This document shows positions 5,204-61,247 of a stretch of DNA of 64,000 nt, piece by piece. Numbering within the stretch: position 1 is the stretch's first letter; each line of letters begins with the position of its first letter. Both the position numbers and the translations under genes were made by a program. The notes beneath the pieces were generated by a model. The model was given only the letters and a program-made list of their open reading frames with translations, did no database searches and was not told the origin of the DNA. The DNA lies in IMG/VR virus record IMGVR_UViG_3300032284_002843, positions 72,280 through 136,279 of that record. One strand, 5' to 3'. Source of the DNA: a virus.

Positions 5204-5479
5204 ATGTCATCACCCAGTGATTTTAGTACACAACTCGGAGATTTAACAGCTCAGCTAGCAGGAATGGTAGCGGAACGTTTGGCATGGGCTACACGCAGCA
5301 TAGATCCAAACAAGCGTAGGCAAATACTAGAAATGATTGAAGGGCAACTTCCAGACATCATTGCTAATAGCATAGCTAAAAGTCCAAGTTTGCACAGTGC
5401 CAAAGGTGTTGAATATTTTGAAAAAAATATTGAACAAATGGCCGAATCATATGTTCAAAAGTTCGTAGGAAAAATCTAA
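5204..5479 (+). CDS. hypothetical protein
   Basis: 91-aa ORF with GGAG SD. Confidence 0.7.
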   Translation: MSSPSDFSTQLGDLTAQLAGMVAERLAWATRSIDPNKRRQILEMIEGQLPDIIANSIAKSPSLHSAKGVEYFEKNIEQMAESYVQKFVGKI

Positions 5480-58042: not shown

Positions 58043-58840
58043 ATGGAAAATTTTGATTTAGAACGACCTATTAAAAGGCGGCCACCTAGCCAACGACAGT
58101 TTGTAATTACACCAGATCCACGTTTGCAAAAAAATCTTCTTTATTTTATGCAACAAGAATTAGGTTACTATAACACACTGGTTACCAATTTCAATGCTAG
58201 AGTTAAAGCATTTCCACAGGACATACTAGCCATTAGAGATAGAGATATTAAGCTATTGGAAACCTGCGGACAATTTGCATATGATCCTGATAAGCTATTA
58301 TCAACCGATTATGACAAATGGCCCGAAGCATTTAAAAGCTACCAGTCTATAGTTTATCTTACCGAAGGTAAAACCAGAATATCGGAAAGAACGCTAGGCA
58401 TCATGAAAATAGCCACAGTTCCTGCACATATTCATCATCAAGTTCGTAGAAATATGATCAGCGAAGTGTTCGCTACTGTTAGCTCGCAGGCAAACATATT
58501 TCTAGCAGCCAAAAATACCGAGCAGCTACGTGCACCTGTGCAAATGATGCAGCCACAAACTTGGGAAACCAAGCATCATTTACAGGTACCCAAATCATTA
58601 ATTGAGATGAACTACAATGATGACACTAACTGGACTCTAATCAAAACTCCATATAACAAAGAATGGCTGACTGTGCTAGGGTACGATCTCACTGCTATTC
58701 CATATAACACTATGGTAATTAAGAGCCCAATACCAGGCGAAGATAAGCCAACATGGAGAATCGAGTTTAAAGATCAACCTAACAAATATTTGTTAAACTT
58801 AACAGATCCTCGTCCGTACAAAAAGAAAAGAAGAACATAA
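58043..58840 (+). CDS. TnpB/Cas12f REC-WED-lobe-like protein lacking RuvC (tentative)
   Basis: RQFVITPDPRLQKNLLYFMQQELGYYNTLV, IHHQVRRNMISEVF and TMVIK...WRIEF align by eye with the TnpB N-lobe pattern; the ORF ends before any RuvC-I motif. Confidence 0.55.
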   Translation: MENFDLERPIKRRPPSQRQFVITPDPRLQKNLLYFMQQELGYYNTLVTNFNARVKAFPQDILAIRDRDIKLLETCGQFAYDPDKLLSTDYDKWPEAFKSYQSIVYLTEGKTRISERTLGIMKIATVPAHIHHQVRRNMISEVFATVSSQANIFLAAKNTEQLRAPVQMMQPQTWETKHHLQVPKSLIEMNYNDDTNWTLIKTPYNKEWLTVLGYDLTAIPYNTMVIKSPIPGEDKPTWRIEFKDQPNKYLLNLTDPRPYKKKRRT

Positions 58841-58876
58841 AAAAATGCTGCAATAGCGTCCTATTGCAGCATTTTT
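58841..58876. terminator. strong, potentially bidirectional intrinsic terminator
   Basis: 16-bp perfect stem AAAAATGCTGCAATAG-CGTC-CTATTGCAGCATTTTT. Confidence 0.85.
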
Positions 58877-58950
58877 ATGGCTCATAATATGAACGTTGGC
58901 TCAGGACGTTCACATCATTATTATAGATAAACAGTTGATATAGGTCAAAT

Positions 58951-59238
58951 ATGCAGAAAAAATATTTTCCAAGTCCCAGCAAACAAAGTACAAAAAAACT
59001 GAATAGTTTTAACAAAAAAGTGAAAAAGCGTTGGGAAATAATTCAAAAAAATAATGGAAAAAGTTTAAGAAAAGAATTTGACCTAATAATGAAACTCAAC
59101 TACAGTATGTTAAATGCTCAAGAAATTGAGCAGATATGGCACACAATTGGCACACAAATAGCTCACAAACAATCTCATATAGGCTCCTTAAAAAATCTCA
59201 TTATAGACTCAATTAGGCTCACAAATAATTCCCACTAA
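58951..59238 (+). CDS. doubtful Lys-rich ORF
   Basis: 95-aa low-complexity ORF overlapping a GAAA hairpin and the repeat tract; weak SD. Confidence 0.3.
   Translation: MQKKYFPSPSKQSTKKLNSFNKKVKKRWEIIQKNNGKSLRKEFDLIMKLNYSMLNAQEIEQIWHTIGTQIAHKQSHIGSLKNLIIDSIRLTNNSH
59138..59221 (+). repeat. eight phased degenerate RRC(T/A)CA-like repeats, ~11-nt period
   Basis: ggcaca 59138, ggcaca 59149, agctca 59160, atctca 59172, ggctcc 59182, atctca 59195, gactca 59206, ggctca 59216. Confidence 0.6.
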
Positions 59239-59244
59239 AATACT

Positions 59245-59706
59245 GGCAATAAAATGGTAGTCGTGCTACCGCAGTGAAAGGTTAACGAACCGGTTAACAT
59301 ACTCACTCAAAAAGGGTCGTATCTAATAGCTCTTAAGCCCTGACCAGAAAGAGAGCAAAAAGGATTACAGCCGTAGTGTGACTACGCACCTGTAACTTAT
59401 TCAATTCTTTGCTTACATAGATTGAATAGGGCTTGGTAATACCATAACCGAGATGAAACGCAAGTTTCGAGTATAACATCCTCATGTTGGAATTAGGATC
59501 TCCGCCAACTGGCACAGCCATGGATGATGTAGCATGGATAGTTCTCATCAGAATGTCGACTATTTTTTACATACTCCCCCGCGAGGGGAGTATTATGGCT
59601 TCATTCTATCAGAATATCATTCAATTAAAGATGTTGTTTGTTGTAGTGAGCTAAAGCGAAACGTAAACAAACAACTGATGAGCGTTAAGCTCATCACTTA
59701 AACATC
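59245..59706 (+). ncRNA. putative large structured non-coding RNA
   Basis: more than 12 helices in ~460 nt, GCAA and GCGA tetraloops, long-range and pseudoknot pairings, no convincing ORF; boundaries approximate. Confidence 0.65.
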
Positions 59707-59732
59707 ACTTACCATCCACTAAATAAAATGTT

Positions 59733-60086
59733 ATGAAACTAAGTGATTTGCTTGAAAACAACGTAATTAAAACTAAGTTTGCTTTAAAACAAACACAAAA
59801 GAATTTAACTCCATATATGCATAATCCTGATATTGAAATTCCGCAATATGATCCGGATAAAAATAGTCTGTGGATATCAGGACTCAGCAAAAGCGAGCCT
59901 GAGAAATTTAAACGATTTGAAGTTGAGCCAGCTGGAAAATCATCTAGTCATATTATAGGTATAGCTGCTAATGGAAATAGAATACGTGTTAGCACTGCAA
60001 ATACTCAACTTGCTGATACTTTAGCAGATTTATATAATCGCGGTGGTTGGTCACAGCACAATTTAGAACGAGTGCAACTGAAATAA
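59733..60086 (+). CDS. late protein with MKLSDLLE N-terminus (possible head-internal protein)
   Basis: CTAAATA late box 7 nt upstream; N-terminal L-x-E motif. Confidence 0.65.
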   Translation: MKLSDLLENNVIKTKFALKQTQKNLTPYMHNPDIEIPQYDPDKNSLWISGLSKSEPEKFKRFEVEPAGKSSSHIIGIAANGNRIRVSTANTQLADTLADLYNRGGWSQHNLERVQLK

Positions 60087-60284
60087 TTAATCTGGTATCA
60101 TATTGCCGCCTTTTTTACTGCTCATAGCGGCATAGTGTTTTTCAATAGTTTTACTAAGTATTTTACGTTGATCAGCACTGAGTAAATGTGCATCGTCGAA
60201 GCTAATTCCTCCCTCCATATAAAAGACCAATGTGGATAATTCTACTGTGATAATTTCACGGTTTTTTTCCATTATGTCCAACAT
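60087..60284 (-). CDS. tail/baseplate assembly chaperone C-terminal part (probably the -1 frameshift extension of the upstream gene)
   Basis: its frame is open back to the slippery site TTTTTTC; no well-spaced SD; FYMEGGISFDDA..L...R motif. Confidence 0.7.
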   Translation of the reverse strand: MLDIMEKNREIITVELSTLVFYMEGGISFDDAHLLSADQRKILSKTIEKHYAAMSSKKGGNMIPD

Positions 60285-60310
60285 CTCAGTAATTTGAGAG
60301 GGGTCTCCTG

Positions 60311-61165
60311 TTAGGAGGATTTGCCGAAAAAACTTGATGGATCAAAGTTTAATGTTTCAGTCCAAGTATGTTCACATTTTGTGCATTGTGCTGGAAATTC
60401 TTTATTTGGACCAACAGAATTAAGCTTGTTAACAGTTTCTATTACAATATCAGCTTCTTTCTTACTGATATTAGTTAGCCATTCATTGATATGATTTTTA
60501 TCAGTTATAGTTTCATTTGTCTGTAGCAGTACAATTTTTTCTATACTTTTACTAACCAAGTCAAAGGTAATGTTGGAAATTCTATCAACGCTTTCGGCAA
60601 GTATTTTAGCTTTTTCCAACTCATCTATTTGTTTATTACTTTCGTCTATTGAACGCAATAACTTTTCTTCGGCAAATTCTCTCTTGATAAAAAGCTGACG
60701 CATTTCAAATGTATATGGTTTTACCCAGACTTCTAATTCTCCGTTAAATGTAATTTTACGATCGTTTTCATTTATAATGGTACTGGTTGCTAGCAGGCCG
60801 TTACAATTGACTTCATAGGTATTTTCATATTCGCATTTTGGACATTTTCTATCCAAATCAAACTTACCATTATTACTAGCAGCTTTCATACCTACGAAAA
60901 TGGTTTCCAAATCTGGAATTAACAACTTTTTAATATCTTTTACATCTGGTGCACAGTTTTTTATAACCTTTTCCAATGCTTGACCGTTTAACATAGCATC
61001 TGGAGTGTTTAAAAGAATGTCATCTATTGCACTTAATGGATAAATGGGAATTTCACCTTCATCGTTTAGATTTACGCTGCCATCAGTGTACCAAATTCCC
61101 AACGTTGGGAGTCTTACATATGCCCCAGCTTGTCTAAAATACTTCGATAATGGGTTATTATTCAT
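60311..61165 (-). CDS. baseplate hub/tail assembly chaperone, T4 gp26-like
   Basis: NPL..YFRQ...Y.RLP..G, D...L.TPDA.LNG, CPKC and CTKC, ends FDPSSFF. Confidence 0.8.
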   Translation of the reverse strand: MNNNPLSKYFRQAGAYVRLPTLGIWYTDGSVNLNDEGEIPIYPLSAIDDILLNTPDAMLNGQALEKVIKNCAPDVKDIKKLLIPDLETIFVGMKAASNNGKFDLDRKCPKCEYENTYEVNCNGLLATSTIINENDRKITFNGELEVWVKPYTFEMRQLFIKREFAEEKLLRSIDESNKQIDELEKAKILAESVDRISNITFDLVSKSIEKIVLLQTNETITDKNHINEWLTNISKKEADIVIETVNKLNSVGPNKEFPAQCTKCEHTWTETLNFDPSSFFGKSS

Positions 61166-61247
61166 GTAAAATTCCTTCAATAAATACAATGCGTGAAAAT
61201 ATTTATCTGAATTAAATAGGTACTTAAAAAATAAGTGATTTTGTTAG

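Follow-up and report, generated by a model that had tools for sequence, protein, structure and literature searches.

A predicted family of structured non-coding RNAs of about 380 nucleotides, newly catalogued in a clade of uncultured T4-related jumbo phages

Large natural RNAs with complex folds proven by covariation are, to our knowledge, rare. Each such class to date has yielded new biochemistry or new structures. The guide scaffolds of TnpB and Cas12f are much smaller than the ~380-nt element described here, and type V guides carry a variable segment at the 3′ side of a conserved scaffold. GOLLD and ROOL are phage-encoded RNAs with large multi-helix folds and pseudoknots defined by covariation, and they have no known protein partner (PMC12286853). 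Assemblies made of RNA alone have recently been demonstrated for GOLLD, ROOL and OLE (PMC12286853). For the Pseudomonas jumbo phage PA5oct, RNA-seq defined the non-coding transcripts ncRNA001–004 (PMC7318152).

The window analyzed in this work is a stretch of 64,000 nt, the final 64 kb of an IMG/VR virus record that spans 136 kb and has a completeness rating of 32%. Judged by gene content, the source virus appears to be a T4-related jumbo phage. The marker genes in the window encode a gp55-like late sigma factor, SbcD/SbcC-like gp47 and gp46, a PDDEXK/RusA-like nuclease, a gp26-like baseplate hub and a 3759-aa virion protein. The closest cultured relatives belong to the Rak2/PA5oct group, with a hub protein identity of merely ~32–34%. 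A preliminary description of positions 59245–59706 had proposed an undescribed large structured phage RNA, and this was borne out by covariation in 13 homologues, the lack of an Rfam match and the lack of a coding signal. The flagged stretch is flanked by a + strand gene for a 265-aa protein (58043–58840) and a − strand hub operon (60087–61189). It had been seen as part of a region with no convincing gene, which was partly right; a conserved small ORF (58951–59238) lies directly upstream. The locus contains the following features:

58043–58840, + strand: gene of the 265-aa protein, with a predicted N-terminal TnpB/Cas12 WED-REC fold without RuvC (AF2 model and structure search)
58841–58877, no strand assigned: terminator-like hairpin behind the 265-aa gene, with a T-run on either side (from the sequence; the − strand version was flagged, with 16 pairs)
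58951–59238, + strand: small conserved ORF of 95 aa, ending a few bases before the RNA (from alignments)
59239–59618, + strand: conserved core of the predicted structured RNA (A8 consensus fold, pair counts and controls)
59619–59675, + strand: variable 3′ region, differing in length and sequence between lineages (from alignments)
59676–59696, no strand assigned: 8-bp hairpin, conserved family-wide and terminator-like on the − strand (helix columns 527–531/540–544, two covarying pairs)
59733–60086, + strand: 117-aa gene, a lineage-specific insertion between the RNA and the hub operon (tblastn, 18 loci)

Homologues were collected from IMG/VR. A scan with an alignment of the 265-aa protein gave the syntenic locus L017, which matched window positions 59178–59707 at 70.5% over 556 nt, and a wider protein alignment gave L025, which matched the element at 66.8% over 458 nt. 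IMG/VR was also scanned with two strict motifs, which proved over-strict and returned the L017 record only. A relaxed motif, built from the blocks invariant among the window, L017 and L025, retrieved 18 IMG/VR loci, and in every one of them the 5′, central and 3′ parts of the element were matched in collinear order. Twelve further distinct homologues were obtained from these loci. Together with the window, the sample comprises 13 distinct sequences from this single collection, with a core length of 363–384 nt. Two of the RNA-bearing records are complete genomes, of 518,643 bp (G001) and 452,799 bp (G003).

Other searches were less productive. Scanning IMG/VR with patterns from one flank protein at a time, the 117-aa or the 282-aa protein, yielded no relatives, and a scan with the hub protein gave non-syntenic or distant loci only. 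In 50,697 phage records, neither the element nor the 265-aa or 117-aa protein had a blastn or tblastn match. On genome contigs, the profile of the 265-aa protein had no match and the strict RNA motif gave six chance matches of ~20 nt. Copies of the core were present on contigs of three of the four aquatic/freshwater metagenome runs, with 1, 13 and 4 + 8 differences; the fourth run (X3) gave chance pieces only, of 18–41 nt. None of the sequencing runs listed as containing the stretch is an RNA run. The protein scan of the metagenome contigs returned two contigs, both ending inside the 265-aa gene and without the downstream DNA. A search within one literature library retrieved no account of the RNA, nor of any jumbo-phage TnpB lacking RuvC.

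The stretch folded better than its shuffled controls, with z = −5.18 on the + strand (none of 100 shuffles did as well) and z = −2.93 on the − strand. The consensus fold of the 13-sequence alignment (A8) contains 77 nested pairs, and in 47 of these both sides change. Including a pseudoknot, the fold comprises 83 pairs in 16 helices (15 nested and one pseudoknot), and 50 of the 83 pairs change both sides yet stay paired. The paired cells amounted to 93.5–93.8% in A8 versus 36–45% when the partners were slid by 1–3 columns. Double-sided changes were found in 50 pairs (151 cells), as compared with 13–20 pairs (21–28 cells) in the slid controls. The observed covariation score was reached by none of 500 shuffles; the 'further pair types' measure was unexceptional, being reached by 139 of 500. 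These pair counts are flattered, since the fold was derived from the same alignment, but the slid controls and the effect size indicate that the covariation is real. The substitutions seen in the metagenome contigs gave a weak, independent check: two of 13 substitution sites fell in paired columns, while ~35–38% of positions are paired (binomial estimate, p ~0.1). One of these two changes turned U·G into U–A, and the other broke a distal pair of P6. On this evidence, the flagged stretch is almost certainly a conserved structured RNA. It appears to represent a newly catalogued, non-coding family of ~380 nt, carried by uncultured jumbo phages of one T4-related clade.

The helices of the core, all taken from the A8 consensus except for the pseudoknot, which came from an all-against-all column scan, are as follows:

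59239-41/59595-97, + strand: closing helix
59243-47/59343-47, + strand: P1
59256-61/59265-70, + strand: P2
59272-77/59303-08, + strand: P3a
59281-86/59293-98, + strand: P3b
59311-14/59338-41, + strand: P4
59365-70/59390-95, + strand: P5
59396-408/59419-30, + strand: P6
59434-36/59441-44, + strand: P7
59455-58/59464-67, + strand: P8
59477-81/59522-26, + strand: P9
59486-90/59505-09, + strand: P10
59511-13/59517-19, + strand: P11
59576-79/59585-88, + strand: P12
59450–59502, + strand: pseudoknot between the linker 59450-53 (GAG.A) and the P10 hairpin loop 59497-502 (GATCTC)

About eight of the 12 helices in the preliminary description were recovered; the other four and the proposed pseudoknots were replaced. 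Covariation supports GGTAG/CTACC, AGTGA..TCACT with its inner GTTAAC/GTTAAC, TTACAG/CTGTAA, GAAAC/GTTTC, the CCCC/GGGG hairpin and TGATGAGC/GCTCATCA. In TATTCAAT/ATTGAATA, all 11 pairs covary. By covarying pairs, the strongest helices are P6 (11/11), P5 (6/6), P8 (4/4), P1 (4/5) and the pseudoknot (3/6). The GTTGG/CCAAC pairing also covaries, but the ATCCT/AGGAT stem drawn around GTTGG was not supported. The family uses CATCC/GGATG (59477-81/59522-26) in its place, and part of AGGAT (59497-98) belongs to the 3′ strand of the pseudoknot (59497-502), whose partner is 59450-53. The stretch holding GGTC/GACC and its GCTCT:AGAGC loop pairing is deleted or variable among relatives; in its place the family forms AGGG/CCCT together with a closing helix, CTGGC(A)/..CCAG. 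The long-range AAGCCCT/AGGGCTT helix had no support in the family alignment. CCATG/CATGG with the loop pairing TGATG:CATCA is broken in near-identical metagenome contigs.

The covarying pseudoknot was absent from the first helix list. It has six pairs with 98.7% of the cells paired. Three of the six covary (GC:8/AU:5; UA:6/CG:5/AU:1; GC:9/AU:3), and the remainder are invariant or U·G. Among the unpaired parts of the core, the blocks GTGAAAGG, AAAGGA, ACCGA and TCCGCC are invariant. As for the GNRA loops noted at the outset, the one on P12 held, and the GCAA loop at 59460 proved not to be conserved as GNRA family-wide. Read from A8, the P12 loop is GCAA in seven of the 13 sequences and GUAA in one; the window has GCGA plus one additional C. 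A direct repeat, ATCAGAAWRTC, lies on either side of P12 (59547–59557 and 59608–59618 in the window; 5408–5433 and 5472–5497 in L017), and CAGAA is invariant in both copies in 13/13 sequences. The variable 3′ region that follows the core contains a long A/U-rich hairpin (59633–59675), the covariation of which was left unscored since its columns are unalignable.

The element matched no family in Rfam. At the gathering score, the Rfam 15 models gave no match in the whole 64-kb window. At E ≤ 10, the interval 58800–59800 had chance-level rows, none of them GOLLD, ROOL, OLE, HEARO, RNase P, tmRNA, group I/II introns or small ribozymes; at E ≤ 1, six homologous loci (54 kb) gave none. The initial view that tRNA and tmRNA are lacking agrees with ARAGORN, which found neither in the 64-kb window. 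We considered RNase P for the likeness of GTGAAAGG plus a hairpin, which we take to resemble it, and for its presumably similar size; no RNase P model scores. A protein-coding gene was rejected on three grounds. The columns show no three-base phase (entropy 0.745/0.759/0.763), 197 of 215 gap runs have a length not divisible by three, and no frame is open over the core in the 13 sequences. A riboswitch or 5′ leader was also rejected, as the element abuts the converging orf65–hub operon in 18/18 related loci. A + strand gene behind the element occurs only in the window, namely the lineage-specific 117-aa insertion. This gene had no tblastn match in any of the 18 related loci, and L017 is likewise without it. 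Its product has no Pfam or PHROG name; the sequence recurs as an internal domain in many larger proteins of 200–4300 aa (79 matches at E ≤ 0.001, 40 at E ≤ 1e-10).

The synteny is constant at the 18 IMG/VR loci, where the RNA has the gp47–gp46–(PDDEXK) recombination genes on one side and the baseplate-hub operon converging from the other. In cultured relatives, the equivalent slot from the recombination genes to the hub is an unannotated gap of 660–790 nt:

L046, 8074–8756, no strand assigned: syntenic gap in the Salmonella phage Munch
L044, 8559–9221, no strand assigned: syntenic gap in PA5oct
L045, 8974–9767, no strand assigned: syntenic gap in XaC1

This slot folded strongly in the two cultured relatives tested (Munch, z = −4.52; PA5oct, z = −9.08). 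In PA5oct, XaC1 and Munch, nhmmer with the RNA family profile gave no match, and there was no detectable shared sequence. Munch gp274, which occupies the equivalent place, showed no profile similarity to the TnpB-like family.

In 12 of the 13 lineages, a homologue of the small ORF (92–120 aa) immediately precedes the RNA. It is co-directional with the RNA, and its stop codon lies 10–90 nt before the core. The encoded protein has an N-terminal FFP, a basic stretch and the motif ..EF..Y..L....LW..G.., and gave no credible Pfam, PHROG or Atlas lead. In the L017/L018 lineage the ORF is degenerate and the RNA is intact. Judged from these alignments, the small ORF appears to be a steadier partner of the RNA than the TnpB-like gene. 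A GGCWCA array lies largely in the conserved C-terminal codons of the ORF. We rejected GGCWCA/TATAGGC as a genome-wide promoter, as it does not recur genome-wide and is mostly small-ORF coding sequence. In L026, L027, L028 and L031, which are loci without the TnpB-like gene, the PDDEXK gene is co-directional with gp46 and its end is overlapped by the small ORF. Owing to this overlap and the shared strand, gp46–PDDEXK–small ORF–RNA looks like a single operon at these four loci. In the TnpB-bearing lineages the orientation of PDDEXK is inverted.

The 265-aa protein had no Pfam or PDB sequence match. Its AlphaFold model, built from 13 sequences, reached a pLDDT of 87.3 and a pTM of 0.84. The first 38 Foldseek rows were all of the Cas12/TnpB family (best E = 1.4e-3, probability 0.99). 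In a structure alignment against 48,161 representative chains, the top 25 were all Cas12f, Fanzor2, TnpB or other Cas12 proteins with Z = 9.5–5.4; the first unrelated row covered 88 residues only (Z = 5.2). Model residues 16–246 aligned with Cas12f 3–209 and TnpB 4–173. An earlier, poorer model gave the same structural picture. Language-model features led to Atlas families labelled as putative transposase fragments. Ten relatives were present in a large protein collection. The 15 family members found all measure 177–271 aa, with no longer relatives. According to the model, the protein is a WED-REC module of the TnpB/Cas12 superfamily, with the entire RuvC half missing.

The gene of this protein adjoins the RNA in nine of the 13 lineages. 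The L026, L027, L028 and L030 groups have no TnpB-like gene at the locus, where the interval holds PDDEXK and the small ORF only. The complete genome G003 contains both the RNA and the TnpB-like protein; in G001 (518,643 bp), which is also complete and bears the RNA, the protein profile matched nothing at E ≤ 0.01. The architecture of the RNA is the same with or without the gene. From this distribution, the RNA appears to be older and wider than the presence of the TnpB-like protein.

Several sequence signals follow the 265-aa gene. L017 has an analogous hairpin behind the gene, with a different sequence. A conserved inverted repeat, GTGAAC..GTTCAC, is found behind the gene at 58878–58948 in the window, 4858–4913 in L017 and 4808–4855 in L025 (89.8% identity over 49 nt between the window and L025). 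It is overlapped by back-to-back sigma-70-like promoters. The promoter-like TTGACC-17-TATAAT on the − strand scores 11/12 in the window and in L017, and would yield a ~77-nt hairpin-plus-terminator RNA antisense to the end of the 265-aa gene. On the + strand, the promoter-like TTGGCT-17-TATTAT faces the small ORF.

The RNA is probably made from the + strand. The consensus fold energy was −75.5 on this strand versus −66.9 on the other, the unpaired columns are A-rich (1053 A versus 697 U), the GNRA-type loop on P12 exists on the + strand only, and the pseudoknot keeps U·G in 12/13 sequences. The preliminary description had favored the same strand, and that preference stood; the grounds it gave proved weaker, since the G–U versus A–C counts are neutral and just one GNRA-type loop is conserved. 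For G–U versus A–C, we counted 19 versus 15 in the pairs common to both strands and 59 versus 75 in their union. A functional − strand transcript, or a structure active on both strands, is improbable. The − strand does fold well, as in L017 alone, where the two strands are equal (z = −5.28 and −5.06), and some helices bear A·C on the + strand that would be G·U on the − strand (e.g., 4/13 at columns 246–257). Yet the consensus energy there is worse by 8.6 kcal/mol, the loops turn UUGC-type and the linkers U-rich, and no conserved − strand promoter lies within the element. At the − strand entry, the 59676–59696 hairpin is followed by the T-rich GTTGTTTGTT and was flagged as terminator-like in the window; the terminator scan of L017 left its equivalent unflagged. 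This hairpin looks like the terminator of the hub operon, and would block − strand transcription into the element. No promoter common to the lineages was found between the small ORF and the RNA core. Co-transcription with the upstream ORF is probable, and it would also suit a cis-acting end-of-operon element between converging units, such as a 3′ UTR stabilizer, a processing platform or a transcription insulator. The constant location at the junction of converging operons, the terminator-like hairpin at the end and the well-folding slot of Munch and PA5oct are consistent with such a role. Nevertheless, stabilization or termination would require far less than fifteen helices, unpaired blocks that never vary and a pseudoknot supported by covariation, and the cultured relatives have no detectable sequence in common with the RNA. 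We consider a purely cis-acting element quite unlikely.

A different possibility is that the RNA serves as an omega-RNA-like guide or scaffold of its RuvC-less TnpB-like neighbor, in a nuclease-free DNA-binding complex with the guide in the variable 3′ part. The WED-REC fold of the neighbor and its likeness to putative transposase fragments point in this direction, as do the downstream, same-strand placement in 9/13 lineages and the succession of conserved scaffold and variable 3′ segment, which recalls the type V layout. The RNA, however, is equally conserved in the four lineages without the gene at the locus, including the complete G001, and is thus probably not an obligate guide. The core begins 399 nt past the stop codon, and between the two lie a hairpin resembling a terminator and another ORF. 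No meaningful second match of at least 14 nt, and none of at least 16 nt, occurs within the 136-kb partial record. Adjacency is weak evidence, since all loci share one wider synteny and are not independent. A guide function has little chance of being correct. A replication-origin transcript (a ColE1 RNA II-like primer, as the preliminary description had suggested, or a T4-type R-loop RNA) is very unlikely indeed, and so is a site acting as DNA, for example pac. The element adjoins recombination and replication genes, and an AT-rich tract with repeated motifs lies upstream. None of this is specific to an origin. The repeated motif is mostly small-ORF coding sequence and does not recur genome-wide, and the covarying pseudoknot indicates a folded RNA.

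Taken together, the element is probably best explained as a new structured RNA family, transcribed from the + strand and acting in trans, perhaps as a ribonucleoprotein with a small protein. The + strand transcript would carry the small ORF, with the RNA as its last part. A stable folded RNA might then be released from the 3′ end of this transcript and act in trans. The leading candidate for its mode of action is a ribonucleoprotein with the small basic protein; within the subclade carrying the RuvC-less TnpB-like protein, the RNA may also work with that protein, although it appears not to depend on it. The specific mechanism, a complex with the small-ORF protein, is put forward tentatively and has less than an even chance: the ORF is degenerate in L017/L018 though the RNA is intact, which makes an obligate complex doubtful. 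It is unlikely, though conceivable, that the TnpB-derived protein was recruited onto a pre-existing RNA, giving a nuclease-free, RNA-guided or RNA-scaffolded DNA-binding machine, perhaps with the small protein, which would be a type of system so far undescribed. On a second bold reading, the RNA could represent a ribozyme of a new class, or an RNA-only multimer as in ROOL and GOLLD.

These findings suggest a new RNA family from a different setting, the T4-related jumbo phages of 450–520 kb. The 13-sequence seed alignment, the helix map and the pseudoknot suffice for a covariance model, the mining of further members and the choice of constructs for cryo-EM or probing. The TnpB-like protein minus its nuclease half is of interest in its own right for the evolution of RNA-guided systems, and the data caution against presuming that the RNA and this protein function together.

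Compared with described systems, the element shares with the TnpB omega/reRNAs and the Cas12f guides its place downstream of, and co-directional with, a gene of WED-REC fold, as well as the order of scaffold and variable 3′ segment. Unlike the omega/reRNAs, it lies clear of the 3′ end of the protein gene, with a terminator-like hairpin and an ORF intervening, and strict co-occurrence fails, as 4/13 lineages are without the protein at the locus. TldRs are described as nuclease-dead TnpB-like proteins; in our case the whole RuvC half is gone. Like ncRNA001–004 of PA5oct, the element is non-coding and comes from a related jumbo phage. The PA5oct ncRNAs are placed at 8.2, 22, 103 and 246 kb, and the syntenic slot is near 76.5–77.2 kb.

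By these comparisons, the element appears to be a new family within the class of large structured phage RNAs, with GOLLD and ROOL as the closest kind. It resembles them in being phage-borne and in its covarying multi-helix fold, which has 16 helices including one pseudoknot. It matches neither Rfam model, and its core of ~380 nt is shorter than many GOLLD members, which exceed 800 nt (PMC12286853). Unlike GOLLD and ROOL near tRNA islands, it has no tRNA in the 64-kb window, and in 18/18 loci it is bordered by gp46/PDDEXK and by the hub operon. It also differs from them in its carriers, which are T4-related jumbo phages of aquatic metagenomes, and in its position at the end of a recombination-gene operon.
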